NCBI GenBank assembly: GCA_965230945.1
Contig: OZ246397.1
Location: forward strand, 175,701 to 239,700
Origin: an uncultured Gammaproteobacteria bacterium
GTDB taxonomy: Bacteria > Patescibacteriota > Microgenomatia > PFEM01 > JAPLYW01
Reading direction: 5' to 3'
Length of the DNA stretch: 64,000 nt
In this document: positions 4,899 to 57,272 of the stretch, in pieces
Layout: each line of letters begins with the position of its first letter
Numbering within the stretch: position 1 is the first letter of the stretch
Position numbers and translations under genes: made by a program
The notes under the pieces: generated by a model
Database searches by the model: none
Told to the model about the DNA's origin: nothing
What the model saw: the letters and a program-made list of their open reading frames with translations, nothing else

Positions 4899-6452
4899 CT
4901 AATTTTCAAGCCGATAAATTTTTACCTGATAATCGGTATCCCATTTTTGGCTGATTTTTTTGGGACGGAAAGAAGTAATTTCCCAAACGGAATAATTAAT
5001 AGTTTCTGAATCACCTTTATCACTAATGACATAAAGAATTTTAGCCTCAGGGTAAACCTCAACACTCATTGGCTTTTGACCTAAAACATTTAAAAAATAG
5101 CGATAATAAATCGCTCGGGTATTACCATCAACAATATTGGCAATGTTAAATTTATTTTGAAAATTATTTTGAGAAACATCATTGGCAATAATCATGGCAA
5201 TTTGTTTGGCACCTTGAAGGTTAACATTATTAAAATCAATCGAAATTTTTCGATTGACTATTTGCCAATCTTTTTTAAAAGCCGATAAAGATAGCACTAT
5301 AAAAAATGAAAAGAAAATAACCAAAAAAACATATCTTAATAAATGATTAAAACTGGCTAATTTTTCGATTATTTTTTGAGTAAAAAAAACAAGAAAAATA
5401 ACTAAGATTGGTAAAAGCGGCAATAGATAACGATCCTCAATACGTTCTTTTTGAAACTGGCCGAAGATTGAGGCAAAAAACAAACCCAAAAACAAACCGA
5501 CGGTTAAAAATAAAATTATTTTTCTTTCCTTATGTCTTTTATCAATTAATAAAAAAATCAGGAGGGCGGCAAAAATAAAAACGCTAATCAAGCTGATTAT
5601 CGAATGGCTTTTCTCCATGAAAAGAATTGAATACTGCTCAAAACCGAAAAATCTTCCTATAAGAATTCTTAAATAACTAAAAATTCCGTTTAAGGAAAAC
5701 CAAAAGTTGCCACTACTAACCGTCAAGTTCCTAATGGTACTTTTTGTCAGGAAAAAATTATGTCTTATCTCAAAAATAATTATCGGTAAGATACCAAAAA
5801 TAAAACCTAAACCCCAAAGAAAAAGACGAGAAAGTATTTTTTTAGTATTAAAAATAAAAAGGCCGATCAGTAGTGAAAGAATTATTCCCAGAGAAACGTA
5901 GTGAAGCTGAAAGAGACAACCAGATAAAAAACCCAAGACAAAAAGCCAAAACCATTTTTTCCTTTGAAGATATAGGCTCAAGAAAAATAAAATCAAAACA
6001 GTAAAAAAGGGTAAAAAATTTGGGTTCCAAGGGAAACGACTATATTCAACTGTCAAAGGTGAAATCAAATAGAAGAAAAAACCAAAAAGGGCCAGCCAAT
6101 GGTTAGTAACGATTTTCCTTAAAAAAAGAAAAAATAAAATGGCGCCCAAAAAACTAAAAAAGGCCGTTAAAATCGCCGGACCCAAAGGATCAAGGCGACT
6201 CAATAATAAGGCTGGGGCCACTAAATAATAATAAAGGGGGCCGAAATAAGTTTCTAAAGGGCTATTAAGGCCAAAAGAGGTTTGTGGTCCTAATAAGGTT
6301 AATTTCCCCTCGACAATCATTTGTCTAACAACCTCCATATCTCGAGCCACGTCATAAAAAAAGTTTTGTGTAGCCCTCAGTCGATAGAAATTTAAAAAAA
6401 GCCCTAAAAGAATAACAAAAGTAAAAAGAAGCCAATAGATTTTCTTATTCAT
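4899..6452 (-). CDS. GT-C fold glycosyltransferase, ArnT/PMT-like (GT39/GT83 family)
   Basis: Polytopic membrane protein with an N-terminal YRL...D..RD loop motif, FYDVARDMEVVRQMIVEGKLTLLGPQTS.... Paralogous to 13706..15229 and 15226..16779. Confidence 0.6.
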   Translation of the reverse strand: MNKKIYWLLFTFVILLGLFLNFYRLRATQNFFYDVARDMEVVRQMIVEGKLTLLGPQTSFGLNSPLETYFGPLYYYLVAPALLLSRLDPLGPAILTAFFSFLGAILFFLFLRKIVTNHWLALFGFFFYLISPLTVEYSRFPWNPNFLPFFTVLILFFLSLYLQRKKWFWLFVLGFLSGCLFQLHYVSLGIILSLLIGLFIFNTKKILSRLFLWGLGFIFGILPIIIFEIRHNFFLTKSTIRNLTVSSGNFWFSLNGIFSYLRILIGRFFGFEQYSILFMEKSHSIISLISVFIFAALLIFLLIDKRHKERKIILFLTVGLFLGLFFASIFGQFQKERIEDRYLLPLLPILVIFLVFFTQKIIEKLASFNHLLRYVFLVIFFSFFIVLSLSAFKKDWQIVNRKISIDFNNVNLQGAKQIAMIIANDVSQNNFQNKFNIANIVDGNTRAIYYRYFLNVLGQKPMSVEVYPEAKILYVISDKGDSETINYSVWEITSFRPKKISQKWDTDYQVKIYRLEN

Positions 6453-37361: not shown

Positions 37362-37434
37362 GGCCCCATCGTCTAGAGGCTTAGGACACTAGGTTCTCAT
37401 CCTAGAAACTCCGGTTCAAATCCGGATGGGGTCA
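37362..37434 (+). tRNA. tRNA-Glu (anticodon CUC)
   Basis: Hand-folded cloverleaf. Acceptor GGCCCCA/TGGGGTC, D stem GTCT/GGAC, anticodon stem CTAGG/CCTAG with loop TTCTCAT, T arm TCCGG-TTCAAAT-CCGGA, discriminator A. CCA is not encoded. A TATAAT lies 12 nt upstream. Confidence 0.8.
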
Positions 37435-37448
37435 CAGATCCAAAAAAA

Positions 37449-41423: not shown

Positions 41424-42095
41424 TCAATCGTGGATAACAACTTTCGTTCCTGGATTTTCCTTTGAAGAATAGGCCACCCACCTACTTTGGCCTAACAAAG
41501 GTGAAGTCCAATAAAATAATTTCTCTGCATCAGGAATCGACATATTAACACAACCATGGCTCATAGGATAGCCAAAGTTATTATGCCAATAAGCCCCATG
41601 AATACCGTAACCTCTGTAAAAATATTGAACGTAAGGGACATTGGGTAAGTAATAATAAGTATTGTTTTCTTTCCTGCCCCCTTCCATCTTGGTGTATTTA
41701 AGTTTTATCCAAATTCTAAACTCACCCGTAGGAGTCGGCGCCCATTTTCCTCCAGAAATAAAAAACTCATAATCAATATTATTGCCATTATGGGCATATA
41801 ATTTCTGATCTGATAAATCAATTTCAATCCAACGCTCATCACTAATCGCTCCTAAAACAGCCTCATCAGAAGCAGCCAAGATATCTAAAGAAGGTACCAA
41901 CTCCGCTAATTTATAATCAACAATCTTATTATCAAAAATCGCTATTTCTTCATCAGTACTATATTTCCCATCAGCCTCAGGAGGTGGCGGTCCACAACCA
42001 CAAGAAAAGTCATCAAAAATATCACGGGCGGAAAAAAATAAGACAAAGATAGATAAAAACAATGCCAATGGTATTAAAACTTTCAATGATTTCAT
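41424..42095 (-). CDS. L,D-transpeptidase (YkuD fold)
   Basis: Signal peptide. YGIHGAYWHNNFGYPMSHGCVNM contains the conserved His and the catalytic SHGC Cys. Confidence 0.75.
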   Translation of the reverse strand: MKSLKVLIPLALFLSIFVLFFSARDIFDDFSCGCGPPPPEADGKYSTDEEIAIFDNKIVDYKLAELVPSLDILAASDEAVLGAISDERWIEIDLSDQKLYAHNGNNIDYEFFISGGKWAPTPTGEFRIWIKLKYTKMEGGRKENNTYYYLPNVPYVQYFYRGYGIHGAYWHNNFGYPMSHGCVNMSIPDAEKLFYWTSPLLGQSRWVAYSSKENPGTKVVIHD

Positions 42096-42162
42096 TAATT
42101 GAAGTTTACTACAAAAACTTTCTTGTTTCCAGGTTCAAAAAATGATAGAATCAAACCATCAC

Positions 42163-42233
42163 TGCGGGATCGTCTAATGGTAGGACGCTTGACTCTGGAT
42201 CAAGTAATCTTGGTTCGAATCCCAGTCCCGCAG
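42163..42233 (+). tRNA. tRNA-Gln (anticodon CUG)
   Basis: Hand-folded. Acceptor TGCGGGA/TCCCGCA with U1:A72 and G73 (a bacterial Gln identity set), D stem GTCT/GGAC, anticodon stem CTTGA/TCAAG, loop CTCTGGA, T loop TTCGAAT (one T-stem mismatch), 4-nt variable loop. Confidence 0.7.
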
Positions 42234-42354
42234 CAAACTTGAGAACTCAATTGGCTAAGTTACAAATTTAGTTTGTTAAGCCTTGTTTGAAGACCAATTG
42301 AACTAAAATTAACTATTCAGCTCAAATTTCCGTTAGAAATAGACTACTCAAGAT

Positions 42355-43092
42355 ATGAATTTATATAAAAGGAACCAAAAATTAATGGCTTGTTTCACAA
42401 CTAAAGAATTGATTAATTTAATGCTATGGCCGAAAGAGCAGGTCTTACTGAATACCATGCTGGACGCAAGACTACAAGGAACAAACATTGATGATATGAA
42501 GCTAAAGCAATCGGTATTAAAATTAGCCAAAAATTCAGTAAAGTCGACAGACTATGAATATTGGGTATCAATTTTTACTTTATCTGAAGAATTTGGTAAA
42601 GACTGTGAGGTTTGTTTTTACCTGAAGGACACCTTTGATCATCATAAACAGTCGATAACCACATATACTGATTTAGAAAAGTTTAAAGAGCAAAATACTC
42701 CAGCTGATGTGATACTTAAACAAGGCTCTAATCGATTCTTTGAATTCCAGCTAAAGAGATATCAAGGTGACTTAAATCAAGATAGTCTATTTACTTTCAT
42801 CAAAAAGAAAATAATGCACTACAGTTCTCCTATCAACTATTGTATCATTCTACAACATAGTCCTGGCACAAAATTGCCCACATTTTTATTTGAAGATTTG
42901 TGTGCAAAAATTAAAACAATGCCTTTACAAAAAAGAGACTTGGGTAGAATTTGCTTTTTGTTTAATGCAAACAATAAATATATGATATTAGCACATGTTT
43001 ATCCGGAACTAGCAATGTACAAGCGTCCTTTTATAAAAGGGAGCGAACAAGCCAAAGAGATAATTAGTCCAAAAATGAGTTATAAGGATTAA
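42355..43092 (+). CDS. hypothetical protein, first ORF of the island
   Basis: 245-aa ORF with no recognisable motif. Followed immediately by repeat copy R1. Confidence 0.35.
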   Translation: MNLYKRNQKLMACFTTKELINLMLWPKEQVLLNTMLDARLQGTNIDDMKLKQSVLKLAKNSVKSTDYEYWVSIFTLSEEFGKDCEVCFYLKDTFDHHKQSITTYTDLEKFKEQNTPADVILKQGSNRFFEFQLKRYQGDLNQDSLFTFIKKKIMHYSSPINYCIILQHSPGTKLPTFLFEDLCAKIKTMPLQKRDLGRICFLFNANNKYMILAHVYPELAMYKRPFIKGSEQAKEIISPKMSYKD

Positions 43093-43220
43093 AGGGTCCT
43101 AGACCAGCCTATTCAATTATTTTGGAATAAGAACCCTAGGCACTCTATCTAATTATAAAGACTAAGTGAATCCAAACCCACAAAGCTCAAGCCAAACTAG
43201 ATTGGCTAGTTATAAAGAAG
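43093..43220 (+). repeat. island repeat family, copy R1 (long form with CCTAGG and CTAGATTGG sub-motifs)
   Basis: AGGGTCCTAGACCAGCCTATTCAATTATTTTGGAATAAGAACCCTAGGCAC...AAACTAGATTGGCTAG. Homologous over about 100 nt to R2 at 48508..48600. Confidence 0.7.
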
Positions 43221-43390
43221 GATATTTGACCAGTATATCGGTATACTTCTGAGGTTCGAGCCAATCCGAATATTTTTCTTCCCATTTTTCACTTTCAGAA
43301 AGCGTCTGATATGTTTTTTCCAGTGTTATAAGCACTTTTTTGTCATAAAATTCCGTAGTAATTCTCCCGAAGTAAAAAAAGTCCCATAGT

Positions 43391-43419
43391 TTGACAAAAT
43401 CAAGGTTTAATGCTATACT
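43391..43419 (+). promoter_or_regulatory. near-consensus sigma70-type promoter TTGACA-N17-TATACT for first tasA-like gene
   Basis: Exact hexamers read from the sequence with a 17-nt spacer, about 125 nt upstream of the ATG at 43544. Confidence 0.55.
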
Positions 43420-43543
43420 GCATTTTCACTTAGGAGTTAATTTGAGAACCAAAAGTAGAAGCACTCAAAAGTTCTCTTTTTAATCCTTAAAGGTATTCAG
43501 TTTTTGGCACTTTAACAACAAAATAAGAGAAAGGGAAAGAAAA

Positions 43544-44104
43544 ATGAAGAAGAAATTATTAATTATTCTTCCTGTTGTAGCTGCAATGATTTTAGTGATG
43601 GCTTTTGGAGCAGTTGGTGCTAATGCTTGGTTTACAGACCAAGACAAGAGTACCGACAACTTTATCCAAGCAGGGACGGTCAATCCAGAAGTTAGAGGAG
43701 CAAGCTTTACTGTAAGTAATGCCGCTCCTGATATTTGGTACGGTCCATCCGATCCGATTACTTTCTTTAATCATACCCATAATTCAACTTTGCCGGTTAA
43801 ATACAAAATTTCCTCCGAGTTTGTTTCCCAATCGGTCGGTGGTTTTTATGACAAAGTCAGCATCAGGGTTGAAAGAAGAGAAGGAAGCAGTTGGGTTGAA
43901 TACTATAATGGGGCGCTTAATTCCGTAATCATTGGACCCAGTAAATGTGGAGCAATGGCAAATGTCCCCAGTGGTAACAGCCATGAGTGGAGAATTTGGC
44001 TTCAGGTTAATAAATCAGCTGGCAATGGTTTCCAGGGAGCAACAACCACTTTTAATCTGGTATTTGACAGTACTCAAGAAAACAACCCAGGATGGAGTGA
44101 ATAA
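43544..44104 (+). CDS. TasA/camelysin-family secreted protein with SipW-cognate class signal peptide
   Basis: MKKKLLIILPVVAAMILVMAFGAVGANAWFTDQDKSTDNFIQAGTV matches the SipW-cognate signal peptide / TasA N-terminal pattern. Confidence 0.65.
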   Translation: MKKKLLIILPVVAAMILVMAFGAVGANAWFTDQDKSTDNFIQAGTVNPEVRGASFTVSNAAPDIWYGPSDPITFFNHTHNSTLPVKYKISSEFVSQSVGGFYDKVSIRVERREGSSWVEYYNGALNSVIIGPSKCGAMANVPSGNSHEWRIWLQVNKSAGNGFQGATTTFNLVFDSTQENNPGWSE

Positions 44105-44130
44105 AAACTTAAAGGAAGGAGATGGGCTAA

Positions 44131-45123
44131 ATGAAGAAAAAAACAGCTTCCTTCTTCAAGAAATTTGGCATTAGCCTTTTAGTTTTATTTATTATATTTA
44201 TCCTCTTTCTTGCGTATGGTCATATAAACAACCGTTGGTATAAACTTATTTATATTAAAAGTGACAGTATGTTTCCTATTTTTAAGGCAGGAGACCTAAT
44301 TTGTATCACCAAACCGCCTTATGAAATAAAATCTGGAATGATTATTTGTTTTCAAATTAAAGGAGATATTGTCACCCATCGAGTTGTAGCCATAAATGAA
44401 AATGGTAGTTTTAAAACCAAGGGTGATGCCAATAAGGTTGTTGATGATTGGGATGATTATAAAATTAAAAAGGTAGCTGGAATTTATCGCTTCAAAATTC
44501 CCTACTTGGGCTATCCAATTGGATATTGTAGTTACTGGGCCAAAAGAGCAACTCTAGGAGTTAACGATTTTCTAAGAAATACTATTGATAAAATAGGCAA
44601 CATTTTTATTGGAAGCAGTGCCTATTTTGTCAACCAGGATAAAATTCTGATGGGTATCACGGCTGAAGATCCACCCATTCTGATGGGTACCACGGCTGAA
44701 GATCCACCCAAGGAAGAAAATCCAAATTCTGAAGAAGATCAAAATACTACGGAGAATCAGTCACCGGAAGATAAAGCACCAACAATAGATGTTTTTAACA
44801 TTAACAATGACGAGTCAACTACAGAAAGCCGTGAGGTAGTTCTCAATATTTCTGCTTCCGATGATATCACTCCTCCAGAAAAACTCCAAATGAGAATTGC
44901 TAATGATGAGAAAACTTGGCCAGACGAAAACGCAGACTGGGAAGCCTACTCAACAAATAAAAACTGGCAACTTTCAGAGGAAGAAGGAGAAAAAAAGGTT
45001 TGCCTTCAAGTCAAAGATGAGGCAGGCAATATTACCAGCGCCTCGGATACTATCAGCTATAAACCAGTTGATAACGAAGATAACGAAAACACCGAAGAAA
45101 CAACCGAGGACGAAGAAAGCTAA
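44131..45123 (+). CDS. sipW: SipW-type (ER/archaeal-type, S26B) signal peptidase I with about 140-aa C-terminal extension
   Basis: TM anchor, then SDSMFPIFKAGDLI (the SGSMEP box), THRV and TKGDAN motifs. The extension contains a 33-nt tandem duplication (ILMGITAEDPP / ILMGTTAEDPP), an acidic linker and an Ig/FN3-like segment. Confidence 0.7.
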   Translation: MKKKTASFFKKFGISLLVLFIIFILFLAYGHINNRWYKLIYIKSDSMFPIFKAGDLICITKPPYEIKSGMIICFQIKGDIVTHRVVAINENGSFKTKGDANKVVDDWDDYKIKKVAGIYRFKIPYLGYPIGYCSYWAKRATLGVNDFLRNTIDKIGNIFIGSSAYFVNQDKILMGITAEDPPILMGTTAEDPPKEENPNSEEDQNTTENQSPEDKAPTIDVFNINNDESTTESREVVLNISASDDITPPEKLQMRIANDEKTWPDENADWEAYSTNKNWQLSEEEGEKKVCLQVKDEAGNITSASDTISYKPVDNEDNENTEETTEDEES

Positions 45124-45247
45124 AATTAAGCCAAAAACTGAATATTAACAAACGAGACCACTTCGTGGAAAACTATAATCTTTTTTGATTATAAACCCCC
45201 ACGCAGTGGTCTTTTCTTATAGAAAATAAAAATTAAAGTCCTATAAG

Positions 45248-45276
45248 TTGACACGATTAAGATTTAGTGTTATATT
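45248..45276 (+). promoter_or_regulatory. near-consensus sigma70-type promoter TTGACA-N17-TATATT for second tasA-like gene
   Basis: Exact hexamers with a 17-nt spacer. The downstream leader, about 95 nt, is 85-90% identical to the leader of the first tasA-like gene. Confidence 0.55.
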
Positions 45277-45412
45277 AAAACTCCTTCATGGGATAAAAGA
45301 AAGAATTAAAAGTGAAAGCACTTTAAAAAAGCTCTTTTTTTAATCCTCAAAGGTATTCAGTTTTTGGCACTTTAACAACAAAATAAGAAAAAAAAGAAAG
45401 GAAGGAAAGCAG

Positions 45413-45964
45413 ATGAAAAAGAAAAAACTCTTTATCATTCTTTCCGTAGCGGTTGTCTTTGTTCTCGTCCTTGCTTTTGGTGCTATTGGCACCAATGCTT
45501 GGTTTAACGACCAAGAGACAAGTGAAGGGAATCTCTTTGAAGCAGGAACCCTTGAGTTAGATGTGCAAGGTAGGAATGAAGCAAACGAGTCTTACACTTT
45601 TTCAAATATTAAACCTGGTGATAGCGCAGGGTGGGAAGGGGTTACTTCTCCTTGGATACCTGGCTTGAATTGGACAGTAAAAAATACTGGTTCAATCGAT
45701 GGCGTTCTAACTGTTAGCTTAAAGGACATTGTCAATGTAGGCAGTGCTCCATTAGCTACCCAGCTTAGACCACAGGTTCGAGTAAACGGTGTTTGGAAAA
45801 CAGAATCCTCTGGTTTTCATAATCTTAATCCGTTTACCGTTGATTTACCTGCTGGACAAAGTGTTACTATTGCCATTGCATGGAGTTTCTACGAAAATGC
45901 TGGTAACGAGTATCAAGGTGCAAGTACAACCTTTGATGTTCATTTTGACTTAGCGCAAAAATAA
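45413..45964 (+). CDS. TasA/camelysin-family secreted protein, paralogue of 43544..44104
   Basis: MKKKKLFIILSVAVVFVLVLAFGAIGTNAWFNDQETSEGNLFEAGTLELDV. Confidence 0.65.
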   Translation: MKKKKLFIILSVAVVFVLVLAFGAIGTNAWFNDQETSEGNLFEAGTLELDVQGRNEANESYTFSNIKPGDSAGWEGVTSPWIPGLNWTVKNTGSIDGVLTVSLKDIVNVGSAPLATQLRPQVRVNGVWKTESSGFHNLNPFTVDLPAGQSVTIAIAWSFYENAGNEYQGASTTFDVHFDLAQK

Positions 45965-46124
45965 TATATAACAAGACCAACATCCTTAACTTCTCAAGAA
46001 GTTAAAAACCAATCTTTCTAGAGCCAAAAACTGAAAAATATACCACTTGAGGTGAAATTTGATAATCTTTGGTTATCACTTTCCGCTTCAGGTGGTTCTT
46101 TTATGACTATTTTCCACTAAAAAA

Positions 46125-46151
46125 CCCTCCGCAAAGGAGGGTTTTCTTTTT
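46125..46151 (+). terminator. rho-independent terminator of the tasA-sipW-tasA module
   Basis: CCCTCC-GCAAA-GGAGGG hairpin followed by TTTTCTTTTT. Confidence 0.7.
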
Positions 46152-46204
46152 GACAACTAAGATGTGGTAAGAAAAAGGGGTTTAAATTGATAAAATCTGT
46201 TTTT

Positions 46205-46290
46205 CTTTTTTATACTGTCTCATTTGTCTCATTTACTCTTGAGTTATAATGATAGAAAGGTCTTAGACCAACCCGCTCAACTTAGAAAAG
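46205..46290 (+). repeat. island repeat family, copy R6 (short form)
   Basis: TTTTATACTGTCTCATTTGTCTCATTTACTCTTGAGTTATAATGATAGAAAGGTCTTAGACCAACCCGCTCAAC. Confidence 0.7.
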
Positions 46291-46334
46291 CCCTAAATAT
46301 TGGGCTTTTTTTAATTATATGTTAAAATAAAAAT

Positions 46335-47576
46335 ATGATTGACTTGATTTTTGTAGTTTCTCAATCAAATAGAAACAGCATTGCCGCTCTCTTAGGTACC
46401 CTCGATACCGAAAAACAGATTATTGAACGTTTTAATATAAAGCTAATTAATGAAAAAGGTGTTGAAAAAGAAATAAAATCCAAAAAAAAGAAAATTATTT
46501 GTTTTTCTTTTCAAACTCCCGATGTTTTTAAACTCCAACCATTAATAAGGAAAATTAAAAAAGATAAAGAAACTCTTCTGATAGCAGGAGGCGCTCACCC
46601 ATCAGGTAGTCCTCAACATACCTTAAAAATGGGCTTTGACTTTGCTTTTATAGGAGAAAGCGAGGAAACATTTAAGAGCTTTTTAGAAAAATATCATTCA
46701 AGCCAAAACAACTATGAAAAAATAAACGGCATTGCCTTTAAACAAAATAGCAAATTTATTGTCACTGAAAAAGCGAAACCAGTTGATATCACAAAATATT
46801 TACCTGTTTCTGAAAGATTCCAATTTTTCACTCCTATCGAGATAACTAGAGGTTGTCCATATGGTTGTCGTTTTTGCCAAACTACTTATCTTTTTGGGAA
46901 AATAAGACACCGAACGATAAAACAAATTATTGACTCAGCTAAAATTCTGACTGAGCAGGGTTGGACAAAAATAAGATTTATAAGCCCTAACATCCTATCT
47001 TATGGCTCTGTAGATGGTAAGAAAACCAATCTACCAGAATTAAAAAGAATACTAGAATCAGTTAGAAAAATTAACGGTGTTGAAAAGATTTATGCTGGTA
47101 GTTTTCCTTCCGAAATCAGACCAGAAAATGTTACAAAAGAAGCTTTATCAATTTTAAAAAAATATGCTAATAATGACAATATTATTATCGGGCTCCAATC
47201 AGGAAGTAATAATGTTTTAAAAAGAATGCATAGACAGCACACTGTTAGAGAGGGTTTAGAAGCAATTGAAAAAGCACTTGAGATTGGATTTAAGGTAAAT
47301 GTTGACTTTATCTTTGGAACCCCAGGAGAAACAAAGGAAAATGAAAAAGAGACGATTGAAATAATTAAAAAATTAACTAAATTACAGGGCGTTAGAATTC
47401 ACGGGCATACTTTTCTACCTTTACCTGGAACGCCTTGGGAAAATGAAAAAGCAGGGAAAATCTCAGATGGATTAAAAAAATTTCTTAAAGGGCTAATTGA
47501 TTCTTCGAAGGTTTATGGTGATTGGGAAAAACAAGAACAGTTATCTAAAATGATCAGTCATCTTCTAAAGAAATAA
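46335..47576 (+). CDS. B12-binding-domain radical SAM protein
   Basis: N-terminal cobalamin-binding-like domain and ITRGCPYGCRFCQT (CxxxCxxC radical SAM cluster). Confidence 0.7.
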   Translation: MIDLIFVVSQSNRNSIAALLGTLDTEKQIIERFNIKLINEKGVEKEIKSKKKKIICFSFQTPDVFKLQPLIRKIKKDKETLLIAGGAHPSGSPQHTLKMGFDFAFIGESEETFKSFLEKYHSSQNNYEKINGIAFKQNSKFIVTEKAKPVDITKYLPVSERFQFFTPIEITRGCPYGCRFCQTTYLFGKIRHRTIKQIIDSAKILTEQGWTKIRFISPNILSYGSVDGKKTNLPELKRILESVRKINGVEKIYAGSFPSEIRPENVTKEALSILKKYANNDNIIIGLQSGSNNVLKRMHRQHTVREGLEAIEKALEIGFKVNVDFIFGTPGETKENEKETIEIIKKLTKLQGVRIHGHTFLPLPGTPWENEKAGKISDGLKKFLKGLIDSSKVYGDWEKQEQLSKMISHLLKK

Positions 47577-47579
47577 TTC

Positions 47580-47725
47580 TGTCTTTGATAAACCACCTCA
47601 GGATAAGCTATAATCTTTTCTAAGTTACTAGTTCAAAAATCGTCTGCTAAGGCAACTCGTTGGGAATAATACTGTAGATATGGGATCGAAAGGGCCTAGA
47701 CCGACTTGCTCAGCATAAGTTTGTG
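47580..47725 (+). repeat. island repeat family, copy R3 (promoter-like module plus GGGAATA-N-ATGGGATCGAARGGGCCTAGACC module)
   Basis: TTGATAAACCACCTCAGGATAAGCTATAAT...CGTTGGGAATAATACTGTAGATATGGGATCGAAAGGGCCTAGACCGACTTGCTCAGC. Confidence 0.7.
47585..47614 (+). promoter_or_regulatory. promoter-like TTGATA-N18-TATAAT module inside repeat R3
   Basis: Read directly from the sequence. The same module recurs at 50995..51024 (TATAAC) and 51709..51738. Confidence 0.4.
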
Positions 47726-48500: not shown

Positions 48501-48507
48501 ATTGAAC

Positions 48508-48600
48508 AGGTTCTAGACCGACCTGCTCAATTATCTGGGATTAAGAACCCTAGGCATACGGTTCAGTTACAAGGACTAGATTGGTCTAGACCGGGGAGTT
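48508..48600 (+). repeat. island repeat family, copy R2 (long form)
   Basis: CAGGTTCTAGACCGACCTGCTCAATTATCTGGGATTAAGAACCCTAGGCATAC...GGACTAGATTGGTCTAGACCGG. Confidence 0.7.
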
Positions 48601-48652
48601 CAACAAATAATGACAAATCGCTCTTTGAGTGGTTTTTTGATAAAGTAAACAT

Positions 48653-49582: not shown

Positions 49583-49682
49583 TAGAAGTAGTATCAGAAA
49601 TACGCCTGCGATCATAGTTTAACAGAAAAATACCTTGTAGAAAACAGATTAAATTAGTATTCTGCTCGGACAAAAGGTACTC

Positions 49683-49790
49683 TTTTTTTATAGTGTCTCA
49701 TTTGTCTCATTTAGCCTCGAGGTGATACGCTTAGATTGTTGAGTTATAATGACTAAAAGGTTCTAGACCGGCCTGTTCAGCAAAATATCC
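49683..49790 (+). repeat. island repeat family, copy R7 (105-nt form)
   Basis: TTTTTATAGTGTCTCATTTGTCTCATTTAGCCTCGAGGTGATACGCTTAGATTGTTGAGTTATAATGACTAAAAGGTTCTAGACCGGCCTGTTCAGCAAAAT. Confidence 0.75.
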
Positions 49791-49844
49791 TATAATTTGA
49801 CTTTGTGCCTTTCTTATATTAACATTTAAAATAATAAAGACATT

Positions 49845-51014
49845 ATGGAAAAAATTAATTCAGAAATATCTCCACCTATCCAAGAAAAAAATGAACCTGC
49901 TAAAAGTCATATTGAAAAATTAGGCAGGTTGTTTCTTTGTAGAAAAATTGTTACTGTTCCATCAAAAACTAAAGATGGTATTGAACGGCCTCTTTCTGTA
50001 AGGGCGTCAAGAGCTGAACTTTATAAAAAATATCGATCCACAGAAAAAGAAAACACTATCAAGCGAAAACAAATAATTGAACAAGCTCATATAAGAGACG
50101 AAATCTTAAAACAGTATTTAAACCAAGGTGAAGTTATTGTAAGCATACCTCACTTAGGCGAACAAAAAGCAAGATATACAACAATAAATCCTTCTGAAAC
50201 TCTCAAAAATAAAGAAAAAGAAGATCAGAACCATGTTTTCCTAATCCCCGGCCTCTCTAATGACATTGACTGTGTCGGAGCTCTAGCCCAAGAAGCTGCT
50301 TTTTTAGGAAAAAGAATTACTGTTATAGCTTTTCCTGAATCGTTCAAAGGAAAAGCTACCCAAGAATTCGCTAATGCAGTAGAAAAAGATAAAGGTTATG
50401 GACCACATGTAGAGTTTTTTAAAAACGCCATCAAACAATTAAGCAAAGAAAAGGACTCTCTTGAGCTTTGGGGACTTTCAACTGGAGCCCCAATTGTTTG
50501 TTCTATACTAAACGACCCGCAATTCGTCCAAAAAACAGAAAATGCCGTTCTCTTTGCTCCCGCAAGTTCTGTTAGCCAACTAGCCATTAGTTTAAATACT
50601 GGAATAATTAACGATTTTTTAGGTTTAAAAAAATTCCGCACTTTTCCTTATTGGAACTACACTTATGAGAGTAAAAAGCCCAGAGAAAAAGAACAAATAA
50701 AATTAAGAAAAGAAATTTATAAATCTCTTCTAAAAAGAACTCGTACCAGACTTGATTATTGGAAAACAGCTAAAGTTAAAGAAAAAGGAAGTATTGTAGT
50801 AGTATCAGGAAGAAAAGATAAAATTACAAAAAGCTCTAATATTAATAATGAAGTATTAAGAAATCCCCAAGTAAAGCTTCTTGATCTGCAAAACATGTAT
50901 CATATAACACCTAATTTAGAACCAAATGAGATTTTGTCTTTGGTTTTTAAATTCCAGAAGGAAGAAAAAGAAAATCTTTGGTCTTTTGATAAACCACCTC
51001 AGGATAAGCTATAA
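49845..51014 (+). CDS. alpha/beta-hydrolase fold protein; last 9 codons encoded by repeat R4
   Basis: GxSxG nucleophile elbow LWGLSTGAP. C-terminal FDKPPQDKL-stop is read from the TTGATAAACCACCTCAGGATAAGCTATAA repeat module. Confidence 0.5.
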   Translation: MEKINSEISPPIQEKNEPAKSHIEKLGRLFLCRKIVTVPSKTKDGIERPLSVRASRAELYKKYRSTEKENTIKRKQIIEQAHIRDEILKQYLNQGEVIVSIPHLGEQKARYTTINPSETLKNKEKEDQNHVFLIPGLSNDIDCVGALAQEAAFLGKRITVIAFPESFKGKATQEFANAVEKDKGYGPHVEFFKNAIKQLSKEKDSLELWGLSTGAPIVCSILNDPQFVQKTENAVLFAPASSVSQLAISLNTGIINDFLGLKKFRTFPYWNYTYESKKPREKEQIKLRKEIYKSLLKRTRTRLDYWKTAKVKEKGSIVVVSGRKDKITKSSNINNEVLRNPQVKLLDLQNMYHITPNLEPNEILSLVFKFQKEEKENLWSFDKPPQDKL

Positions 51015-51150
51015 CCTCTATGGGTTTGAAACCTTCGGCTATAATGATAGAAAGGACCTAGACCATCCTGCTCAGCTCGTTGGGAATAGTACCGTAAGTA
51101 TGGGATCGAAGGGGCCTAGCCCAACCTGCTTCAGCTACGATTTGTTTATT
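50990..51150 (+). repeat. island repeat family, copy R4 (composite: promoter-like module, TATAATGATAGAAAGG module, two CTAGNCC-CCTGCT-CAGC motifs)
   Basis: ...GGACCTAGACCATCCTGCTCAGCTCGTTGGGAATAGTACCGTAAGTATGGGATCGAAGGGGCCTAGCCCAACCTGCTTCAGC. Confidence 0.75.
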
Positions 51151-51704: not shown

Positions 51705-51915
51705 TCTTTTGATAAACTTCTCGAGGATAAGCTATAATATTCTTCAGTCGGTGGTTTGGAAATCATCAACTAAGACCAGCAGATTAGGAATAGCACCGTA
51801 AGTATGGGATCGAAGGGGCCCTAGACTAATCTGCTCAATTTTTTCGGAATTAAAACCGTAGGAACACCGTCCAGCTTTAAGGACTAGAAAGATCCAAACT
51901 GTGGAACTCAGCCAA
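51705..51915 (+). repeat. island repeat family, copy R5 (composite, longest copy)
   Basis: TTGATAAACTTCTCGAGGATAAGCTATAAT...AGGAATAGCACCGTAAGTATGGGATCGAAGGGGCCCTAGACTAATCTGCTCAATTTTTTCGGAATTAAAACCGTAGGAAC...GGACTAGAAAGATCC. Lies between two minus-strand genes but keeps plus orientation. Confidence 0.7.
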
Positions 51916-53811: not shown

Positions 53812-53825
53812 GAATTATTTTCTAT

Positions 53826-53930
53826 TTCTTTTTATAGTACCTCATTTGTCTCATTTGGCCTCGGAGTGATACACTTAGAGTATTGAGTTATAGGAACTAA
53901 TAGGTCCCAGACCGACCCGCTTAGCATAGA
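53826..53930 (+). repeat. island repeat family, copy R8 (105-nt form)
   Basis: TTTTTATAGTACCTCATTTGTCTCATTTGGCCTCGGAGTGATACACTTAGAGTATTGAGTTATAGGAACTAATAGGTCCCAGACCGACCCGCTTAGCATAG. Confidence 0.75.
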
Positions 53931-53938
53931 AATTCTTT

Positions 53939-54271
53939 ATGATAGACAAATGTTCTCAGTGTGGTCTTTGCTGTTGTTTATTTTTAGTGAATTTAGCCGA
54001 AGAAGAATACCGGTCAGGCAAATACAGAACTTAGTTTGAGGAGTTTGGCTTGATTGATAACTTCCACAAGGCAGCCGCGTGTGGGGCAAACATTCTCAAA
54101 CAAAAAGAAGATGGCAATTGCATCTATCTTAAGGGAAACAAATGTTCTATTCATAAAATCAGGCCTCAAGTTTGCAGAGAGTTTTTCTGCACCTCGAAGT
54201 TGAAAAAGTTCAGAAAAATGATTGAACAGATTGAAAAGAAGCGAGCTAGTCTGGAAAAGAGAAAGAAGTAA
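53939..54271 (+). pseudogene. YkgJ-family (CxxCxxCC) Fe/Zn-cluster protein gene interrupted by an in-frame TAG at 54032-54034
   Basis: MIDKCSQCGLCC...YRT-TAG-FEEFGLIDNFHKAAACGAN...CIYLKGNKCSIHKIRPQVCREFFC. Both halves are in the same frame (verified codon by codon). The second half is listed as ORF 54050..54271 starting at TTG. Confidence 0.55.
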
Positions 54272-54300
54272 AAGTTCCTAGACCAGCCTACTCAGTTCTA
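54272..54300 (+). repeat. island repeat family, short copy R11
   Basis: GTTCCTAGACCAGCCTACTCAGTTC directly after the ykgJ-like stop codon. Confidence 0.6.
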
Positions 54301-54318
54301 AAAAATAAAATGGTCATG

Positions 54319-56340: not shown

Positions 56341-56400
56341 TGATTAGACTCTAGACCGACCTGCTCAGCAAATTGGGAATAGTTGGCCGTACTTTTTATA
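56341..56400 (+). repeat. island repeat family, copy R10
   Basis: GACTCTAGACCGACCTGCTCAGCAAATTGGGAATAGTTGGCCGTAC. Here the CTAGACC motif precedes the GGGAATAG module. Confidence 0.65.
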
Positions 56401-57117: not shown

Positions 57118-57164
57118 TTTTTAAAAAGCTCACCAGATGATTGTTTTAAATAGATCATCATTTC

Positions 57165-57272
57165 CTTTTTTATACTGTTTCATTTGTCTCATTTAGCCTC
57201 GAAGTGATACACTTAGAATGTTGAGTTATAAGAAAAGAAAGGGCTTAGACCGAGCTACTCAGCAAATTGGAA
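57165..57272 (+). repeat. island repeat family, copy R9 (105-nt form)
   Basis: TTTTTTATACTGTTTCATTTGTCTCATTTAGCCTCGAAGTGATACACTTAGAATGTTGAGTTATAAGAAAAGAAAGGGCTTAGACCGAGCTACTCAGCAAATTGG. Confidence 0.75.

Follow-up and report, generated by a model that had tools for sequence, protein, structure and literature searches.

Complementary boxes in the 5' and 3' untranslated regions of tasA-sipW transcripts point to a conserved end-to-end mRNA clamp

The tasA-sipW locus and its complementary boxes

The locus described here lies on the forward strand of the 615-kb contig OZ246397.1 (GenBank assembly GCA_965230945.1), within a stretch of 64,000 nucleotides (nt), positions 175,701 to 239,700, which is referred to as the window and numbered from its first letter. 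The gene for a SipW-type signal peptidase sits between two TasA/camelysin-like genes, all on the + strand, and each of the two predicted transcription units, tasA1-sipW and tasA2, carries a short box in its 5' untranslated region (UTR) and the complement of that box in its 3'UTR. Most likely, the pairing of these boxes is intramolecular and clamps the 5'UTR to the 3'UTR, as a conserved variant of a mechanism that is known but rare. Judged by the protein families (Table 1), the locus is a predicted TasA/camelysin-SipW secretion pair, in which substrates with a SipW-dependent signal peptide adjoin an archaeal-type signal peptidase I; the PF12389 match of the tasA1-like protein was weak.

A duplicated promoter-plus-leader unit in front of both tasA-like genes had been described in a sequence-only reading of the window. 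Both promoters were found where they had been placed (TTGACA-N17-TATACT at 43391-43419 and TTGACA-N17-TATATT at 45248-45276); each agreed with the consensus at 11 of 12 positions, carried a TG extension, and ranked among the top two in a promoter scan of 42-47 kilobases (kb). The near identity of the leaders also held, at about 89% over the stretch of about 80 nt that had been written out (our own count on the alignment). With the ATGs at 43544 and 45413, the whole leaders were 74% identical and the promoter regions 68%, and the identity rose to 94% in a 66-nt core (43467-43532 against 45327-45392), compared with 67% for the first 120 nt of the coding sequences (CDS), 55% for the whole CDS and 34% for the proteins. 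The leader was therefore conserved above the coding level between the paralogs, as had been claimed, and a recent segmental duplication as the sole cause was contradicted by the unequal identity of the core and the CDS 5' ends. As a contrast, an ordinary recent duplication was observed in L013, where the CDS 5' ends were also 86% identical. Between orthologues, the whole leader was kept at about the coding level (85% versus 80%, the window against the relative L024). The 22-mer GCACTTTAACAACAAAATAAGA was found at the two leaders only, with 0 expected by chance, and the GCACTYWAA repeat occurred twice per leader as reported (43461 and 43507; 45318 and 45367), its second copy being the 3' flank of a conserved 13-nt box.

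This box, UUCAGUUUUUGGC (B box), was the most conserved piece of the leader and was situated 35-44 nt before the ATG. An exact reverse complement of it (A box) was present in the 3'UTR of each transcription unit. The 15-mer TATTCAGTTTTTGGC, the centre of the core, was found with 0-1 mismatch at four sites only in the 64 kb, all in UTR positions, and the complementarity of B2 and A2 was 13/13 (16 with one mismatch). At least about 20 nt separated the end of the B box from the Shine-Dalgarno sequence downstream (43508 against 43530-43539), and the A box was not complementary to the GAAAGG of the latter. The A boxes were locally unpaired, and strong terminators (-24 to -32 kcal/mol) followed them at a distance of 2-24 nt. 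The two-tier 3' hairpins of the window were taken as terminators because of their energies of -30 and -35 kcal/mol, z-scores (z) of about -5 and a following U-run.

Table 1. Features of the tasA-sipW locus (positions in the window; aa, amino acids)
Feature	Position	Strand	Remarks
Promoter P1	43383..43419	+	CCCATAG motif abutting the -35 box, then TTGACA-N17-TG-n-TATACT
5' leader of tasA1-sipW unit	43426..43543	+	transcription start predicted from the -10 box
Leader hairpin and U-run	43444..43481	+	weak, -5.5 kcal/mol; not called by the terminator scan
B1 box UAUUCAGUUUUUGGC	43494..43508 (core 43496-43508)	+	pairs with A1, 15/15 complementary, -23.5 kcal/mol
Post-box segment ACUUUAACAACAAAAUAAGAG and Shine-Dalgarno AAAGGGAAAG	43509..43539	+	conserved in the leader alignment; not complementary to the 3'UTR
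tasA1-like gene	43544..44104	+	186 aa, predicted SipW-dependent signal peptide; TIGR04088 28.4 bits (cutoff 19)
SipW-type signal peptidase I gene	44131..45123	+	TIGR02228 72.2 bits (cutoff 51.85); family alignment
A1 box GCCAAAAACUGAAUA	45130..45144	+	6 nt past sipW stop; complement of B1; unpaired in local fold
Terminator T1	45154..45219	+	long two-tier hairpin and U-run; -30 kcal/mol, z = -5.2
Promoter P2	45240..45276	+	CCTATAA motif, then TTGACA-N17-TG-n-TATATT
5' leader of tasA2	45283..45412	+	hairpin 45296-45337, then U-run to 45341
B2 box	45354..45371 (core 45356-45368)	+	pairs with A2; duplex -19.8 kcal/mol
tasA2-like gene	45413..45964	+	183 aa; PF12389 37.6 bits, TIGR04088 32.4 bits
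A2 box, core GCCAAAAACUGAA	46020..46035 (core 46023-46035)	+	58 nt past tasA2 stop
Terminator T2	46042..46103	+	two-tier hairpin and U-run; -34.9 kcal/mol, z = -5.0
Second, simple terminator	46121-46145	+	downstream of T2

Conservation, covariation and folding of the box pair

The four-box layout recurred at syntenic loci in nine related metagenomic lineages (L025, L019-23, L024, L015-18, L028, L031/32, L034, L041), the SipW proteins of which were 51-78% identical to that of the window; one cluster among them is labelled "Patescibacteria group bacterium" at NCBI. In all nine lineages the leaders carried the box in sense orientation, and its antisense copy stood right past the last stop codon of the unit, and a homologous two-tier terminator followed the A box wherever the contig allowed. 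The gene order was tasA1-sipW / tasA2 in the window, L015, L019/20, L024, L025 and L028, sipW-tasA1 / tasA2 in L031 and L034, and sipW alone followed by the next unit in L041; the bracket of boxes persisted through all gene arrangements seen. Across the units the B box was located 34-57 nt before the ATG, and in sipW-terminal units the A box started 0-6 nt past the stop codon. The alignment of 12 leaders displayed TCCYATAR abutting the -35 box, an extended -10 box (TGnTAnAnT) and a variable early leader, and further 3' the hairpin and U-run, the B box with WCUUUAAYAA behind it, a spacer rich in A and the GAAAGG Shine-Dalgarno sequence. Paralogous leaders of one genome shared lineage-specific changes, such as ACTTTAATAAYTAAATA in L019_U1 and L020_U2, and GGT plus TCTTT common to both units of L015 and both of L028.

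The layout was not found in more distant relatives. The canonical box was missing from the SipW relatives L027, L033 and L035-L040 (L027 and L033 being 47-48% identical), and the closest TasA2 homologues, 58% identical, belonged to the unrelated lineages L001-L013, had no box, and were of no use for covariation. Genome contigs scanned with the SipW protein gave no match, and the same scan with the SipW alignment gave one distant box-less locus, L026. A different complementarity between leader and 3'UTR was detected in L027, with an energy of -21.5 kcal/mol that was reached by 0.3% of shuffles.

For the analysis of covariation, the B and A boxes of 16 units were aligned, and pairs were counted against 500 shuffles and slid registers. 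Complementary segments were present in the 5'UTR and 3'UTR of the same predicted transcript in all 16 units. Standard pairs were formed in 98.1% of 207 cells, a proportion that is partly built in, since the boxes had been located by similarity to one consensus (at most 2 mismatches, either strand); the unpaired cells were confined to the terminal pair. None of the 500 shuffles reached the observed pairing values, the slid registers paired at 28-55%, and 7 of the 13 pairs had changed on both sides.

The kinds of change, namely wobbles and matched indels, are the only independent evidence for pairing, which the percentage of paired cells is not. At the 12 internal pairs, all eight one-sided changes gave a G·U wobble, and neither an A·C nor a transversion mismatch was found. 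The two motifs of L031_U1 differed at 3 of 13 positions as DNA, and the RNAs paired at 13/13 (10 Watson-Crick and 3 G·U). By our own estimates, no more than one quarter to one half of random one-sided substitutions lead to a wobble, and the chance that about seven independent events all do so is roughly 0.01 or less. In U3 of L031 and L034, UUCGUUUUUGGC was accompanied by GCCAAAGACGAA or GCCAAAAACGAA, an A-U pair being gone from both sides, while in L041_U1 UUCAGUUUUGGC was accompanied by GCUAAAACUGAA, one U and one A being gone, and the neighbouring unit kept five U. These two matched indels are independent, each within single units. A series from U-A through U·G to C-G spanned L031_U2 and L034_U2, and in the B-by-A energy matrices of L031 and L034 the cognate pairs were strongest for U2 and U3. 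Because the changes were wobble-only and the indels matched, the patterns fit an RNA helix within the unit, and not an operator for one protein or recombination repeats. Of the cis-regulatory RNA or operator that had been proposed for the leaders, the cis-acting RNA element was supported and the operator was disfavoured, since the one-sided changes were G·U-compatible and the indels matched within units; the covariation that was to be looked for in homologous leaders was found across lineages, between the box and its 3' partner.

The cognate B:A duplexes had energies of -12 to -23.6 kcal/mol. When single-unit mRNAs with predicted ends were folded (W_U1, W_U2, L015_U2, L028_U2, L031_U3, L034_U3 and L041_U1; 820-1790 nt), the B:A helix was part of the minimum free energy (MFE) structure in 7 of 7, with a mean pair probability of 0.92-0.999. 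The probability was 0.999 for B1:A1 in the 1790-nt transcript and 0.974 for B2:A2 in the 820-nt transcript, and scrambling of A2 in silico lowered the stability of the MFE structure by 9-11 kcal/mol and left B2 largely unpaired. In the bicistronic operon of L031, where A1 and B2 are 12 nt apart, B1:A2 (0.955) closed the transcript around a local A1:B2 hairpin (0.90); by this nesting the transcript would be clamped, and not necessarily each cistron. Short-segment duplexes and full-length partition-function folds were used for these values, in place of RNAduplex on whole leaders against whole 3'UTRs, which was over-extended and uninformative. Because the MAFFT alignment of the 3' modules was poor, RNAalifold retrieved no more than the base of the terminator stem. 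The anatomy, conservation, covariation and thermodynamic dominance of the helix are established computationally.

Leader hairpin, promoters and neighbouring features

The attenuator-like hairpin that had been noticed in the first leader was present as described, with GAGAAC (43444-43449) and GTTCTC (43471-43476) separated by N21 and followed by TTTTT (43477-81). A hairpin led directly into a U-run in 13 of 14 leaders (the 12 aligned and two of L041) and was usually more stable than shuffles; the GAGAAC/GTTCTC stem itself was kept in close relatives with a few compensatory pairs, as in L015 (GAGAAG/CTTCT). The leader hairpins were weak, at -2 to -10 kcal/mol compared with -24 to -32 kcal/mol for the terminators of the locus, and the leaders of the window folded no better than shuffles (z = +0.57 and -0.84). 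No terminator was called by the scan in the two leaders of the window, no antiterminator alternative to the hairpin was found, and no Rfam family matched the leaders or 3'UTRs, either within 42000-47000 at an E-value limit of 10 or in the whole window with gathering thresholds, where only two tRNAs were returned. The hairpin and U-run were the least conserved part of the leader, and attenuation there is possible.

Canonical terminator-like leader hairpins were detected in L028_U2 and L027. Such a hairpin was also carried by the leader of L033 (about 1075-1110; 3905-3941 in L027), and the stems of L027 and L033 were compensatory (CCGGCUG...GGCUGG versus CCGACUG...AGUCGG). In L027 the U-tract region of the leader hairpin was complementary to an A-like region of the 3'UTR.

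Two other candidates in the leader were rejected. A small leader peptide was discarded by inspection, since stop codons interrupt the conserved core and an ATG is absent from it. The tapA-sipW-tasA operon of Bacillus subtilis, which holds the same gene family (TasA-like plus SipW), is regulated by SinR and AbrB, and GTTCTCT in the first leader matches the SinR half-site consensus GTTCTYT. This was regarded as a coincidence: the 7-mer is too short, many chance matches are expected in 64 kb, and the motif is missing from the second leader (GCTCTTT) and from several relatives. The GTTCTCT is the 3' arm of the leader hairpin, and no SinR-like gene was identified.

The motif (T)CCYATAR was observed directly 5' of the -35 TTGACA (CCYATARnTTGAC) in the tasA/sipW promoters and was kept across lineages, at the same position in L015, L019, L020, L024, L025, L031, L034 and L041. 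Three copies were present in the window (43383-43395, 45240-45252 and 49789-49801), the third of which precedes an open reading frame (ORF) at 49845-51014. The motif may bind an activator or form part of an extended promoter.

The terminators of the window and of the orthologous 3'UTRs were unusually elaborate, with an outer stem ACCAYC...GRTGGT around an inner hairpin that was semi-conserved as AATC-UUUU-GATT and covaried (AGTC/GACT, ATCC/GGAT); such two-tier structures may be more than terminators. Between the stop codon of the tasA2-type gene and the A box, a conserved small hairpin of the TTAACTTCTCAAGAAGTTAA type was found in the window (45986-46005), L020 (about 2551-2572) and L031 (about 6118-6140). 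In L020, a Mono Lake contig, tasA1 and tasA2 (357-653 and 1915-2539) appeared frameshifted or truncated, for which assembly error or pseudogenization is possible.

The SipW subfamily, according to the window protein and the family alignment, has a conserved C-terminal extension of about 190 aa without a Pfam match, the motifs of which include INNDE..T.S.EV.L.I and LQMR.AND...W.DE..GWE.YS..K.WQLSEGEGEK. The SipW of the window has 284 aa by the NCBI gene call versus a 330-aa ORF. Its gene contains a perfect-register 33-nt tandem duplication at 44644-44709, 97% identical, which adds an ILMG(I/T)TAEDPP segment that is missing from the closest homologues in the family alignment. Upstream of the locus, tRNA-Gln(CTG) was located at 42163-42234, at a distance of about 1.2 kb, and tRNA-Glu(CTC) further upstream at 37362-37435; an ORF without a family match (42355-43092) lies between tRNA-Gln and the tasA locus.

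Intergenic repeats on the + strand, which form a family with members up to about 104 nt long, TATACTGTCTCATTTGTCTCATTTA...TTGAGTTATAAT...GGTCYTAGACC...GCTCAGC, flank the whole tasA locus. Copies were located at 46201-46316, 49679-49784, 53823-53928 and 57161-57266, and partial copies near 43074-43164, 47653-47710, 48503-48607, 51033-51130, 51777-51915, 54268-54308 and 56341-56381; the core GGTCYTAGACC had nine + strand sites versus 0.9 expected. The repeats gave no Rfam match. The copy downstream of tasA2 (46187-46316) contains a promoter-like site and a terminator and is a candidate small RNA; its segment 46222-46316 was not significantly complementary to the tasA leaders or 3'UTRs.

A predicted 5'-to-3' clamp, its alternatives and known systems

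In the arrangement that we propose, each unit of the locus would be built alike, with a strong extended -10 promoter, a weak 5' hairpin and U-run, the B box, a CUUUAAC-type spacer and a strong Shine-Dalgarno sequence, followed by the gene or genes, the A box and a long two-tier intrinsic terminator. After transcription of the 3'UTR, the A and B boxes of one mRNA would form a helix of 12-17 base pairs (bp) that ties the 5'UTR to the base of the terminator, giving a closed-loop, clamped mRNA. By analogy with the hbs mRNA of B. subtilis, the clamp would keep endonucleases away from a single-stranded, U-rich stretch of the leader, and it would stabilize, or tune the translation of, full-length mRNAs for abundant secreted fibre subunits and the signal peptidase. 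Because the A box starts so close to the stop codon in sipW-terminal units, a ribosome terminating at the sipW stop should briefly open the clamp, which would couple it to translation. That the B:A helix is real and selected can be stated with considerable confidence, and the explanation as a whole, including the module, the helix and an hbs-like role in stabilizing the mRNA or tuning its translation, is considered probable. Helix formation in vivo and a stabilizing effect are what we infer from these data, and the stabilizing direction, which is taken over from hbs, is at best an even choice.

Several points weighed against this explanation. The promoters, transcription starts and terminators are all predictions, and part of the pairing percentage comes from the way in which the boxes were located. 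The box sequence hardly varied between lineages, a constancy that pairing alone does not demand, and the 20 nt past the B box were conserved with no 3' partner; another factor, such as a protein, RNase, ribosome or small RNA (sRNA), probably also reads the box region. Gene conversion, as concerted evolution of paralogous leaders, contributes to the 94% identity, and it or a shared trans factor also shapes the leaders within a genome. The pairing predicted for the L031 operon was not cistron-by-cistron, and translating ribosomes could block a helix that spans 0.7-1.7 kb.

The same helix evidence would equally serve a helix that forms and inhibits, as in icaR, by acting as an RNase III substrate or by hindering the 30S subunit, so that expression stays low until a signal or ribosomes open it. 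The duplex between the 5'- and 3'-UTR of icaR is a precedent (PMC7821165), and a B box 34-57 nt before the ATG lies close to where the landing region of the ribosome begins on the 5' side. However, the A box does not pair with the Shine-Dalgarno sequence, from which the B box is about 20 nt or more away, 12-17 bp are short for RNase III, and the rest of the module looks tuned high (promoters with 11 of 12 consensus positions and TG, strong Shine-Dalgarno, strong terminators), which makes inhibition decidedly unlikely. A leader that is mainly a transcription attenuator, in which the 5' hairpin and U-run terminate early unless a factor intervenes and the boxes are secondary, has in its favor the near-constant presence of the hairpin, its stability relative to shuffles, the terminator-like hairpins of L028_U2 and L027 with the compensatory stem changes between L027 and L033, and the few compensatory pairs among close relatives. 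It leaves the 3' boxes unaccounted for, though, and the hairpins are weak and vary in sequence by lineage, what is truly conserved in the leader comes 3' of them, the folding z-scores of the window leaders are insignificant, and neither antiterminator nor Rfam family was found; this is a poor candidate. Action in trans, with the A box and terminator as a 3'UTR-derived sRNA that pairs with paralogous B boxes and coordinates tasA1-sipW and tasA2, seems about as improbable. A conserved seed directly 5' of a strong terminator is typical of 3'UTR-derived sRNAs (PMC7821165), and the four boxes of the window are interchangeable, with cross-pair energies about equal to the cognate ones, but, owing to the matched indels in U3 of L031 and L034 and in L041_U1, cognate pairs beat cross pairs, which argues for selection on pairing within the unit, and the A1 box of L031 has no terminator after it.

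Readings at the level of DNA, or of no function at all, fared worse. An operator that a regulator binds in either orientation, with looping, or a gene cassette that can invert or move and is bordered by inverted repeats, would agree with a nearly invariant motif that flanks genes as inverted repeats and with a gene order that varies by lineage. Against this, the one-sided differences were all G·U-compatible, L031_U1 being altered as DNA and fully paired as RNA, the indels were matched within single units, the 3' copy always lay inside the transcript just before the terminator, no inverted arrangement occurred among about 25 contigs from the nine lineages, and the neighbouring ORFs showed neither a recombinase nor a regulator domain; such an element is highly improbable. 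An inverton in particular was rejected: the inverted repeats are there, but no recombinase domain was found, one orientation was seen in all contigs, and the repeats differ in a wobble-type manner. The notion that the boxes have no function and that the leader identity stems from gene conversion between paralogs alone is suggested by the lineage-specific substitutions which paralogous leaders of a genome share. It is contradicted already by what is conserved across lineages: with SipW at 51-78% identity, nine lineages have kept the box, the distance from box to ATG and the 3' complement, and gene rearrangements have not removed them. Moreover, conversion between copies cannot create 5'-3' complementarity, and the probability of a reading without function is close to negligible.

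The clamp, as the preferred explanation, offers strong comparative evidence that end-to-end mRNA pairing can be selected and can be a portable bacterial design. It also suggests that ultrasmall bacteria, which are largely uncultivated, control the production of surface fibres after transcription, and the compact module, a 13-nt box pair plus terminator, would serve for probing 5'-3' communication in mRNA decay and translation. A bolder version, in our view unlikely, is that a lineage of Patescibacteria-like bacteria evolved a reusable modular "mRNA end-clamp", a fixed 13-nt 5' box with its 3' complement on every TasA/SipW unit, which would form only on complete, terminated transcripts and be opened by terminating ribosomes, and would act as a completeness check and a translation-coupled stability switch. 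If true, it would be a bacterial counterpart of eukaryotic mRNA closed-loop formation, with unit-specific indels giving each mRNA its cognate clamp.

Complementary sequences that bracket and loop out a functional RNA are also a property of the processing stalks of rRNA operons and of phage T7 RNase III sites, which are established RNase III substrates. The adjacent A1-N12-B2 of L031, which forms an intercistronic hairpin, resembles them, whereas those stalks are longer than the helix here. Only three bacterial 5'UTR-3'UTR interactions, those of RNAIII/hld, icaR and hbs, are described in a review of the field (PMC7821165). In Staphylococcus aureus RNAIII (hld), a 7-bp helix joins the two ends of one regulatory RNA (PMC7821165); the long-range helix is a likeness, but RNAIII is not a module repeated on neighbouring mRNAs. 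In icaR, a UCCCC motif of the 3'UTR pairs with the Shine-Dalgarno sequence, the duplex is cleaved by RNase III and translation is blocked (PMC7821165), whereas the box here is upstream of the Shine-Dalgarno sequence and no anti-Shine-Dalgarno motif is involved. The closest likeness is to the hbs mRNA of B. subtilis, in which a 14-nt segment just past the 5'-UTR hairpin pairs fully with a segment just before the terminator at -19 kcal/mol, and compensatory mutants demonstrated that this pairing restricts cleavage by RNase Y (Braun, Durand & Condon 2017, PMC5737220). Likewise, a segment of 13-15 nt past the 5'-UTR hairpin(s) here pairs with a full complement just before an intrinsic terminator, the energies are similar (-12 to -23.6 kcal/mol), and both cases would concern short, strongly expressed mRNAs for abundant proteins. 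The protection of hbs from RNase Y was shown experimentally, while the present element is a prediction from sequence. Functional 3'UTRs, hbs included, are reported to be generally not conserved even among close species (PMC7821165). In contrast to the single gene hbs, the box pair of these Patescibacteria-like organisms is reused on 2-3 units per locus, covaries across nine lineages, survives gene rearrangement and abuts the stop codon in sipW-terminal units.

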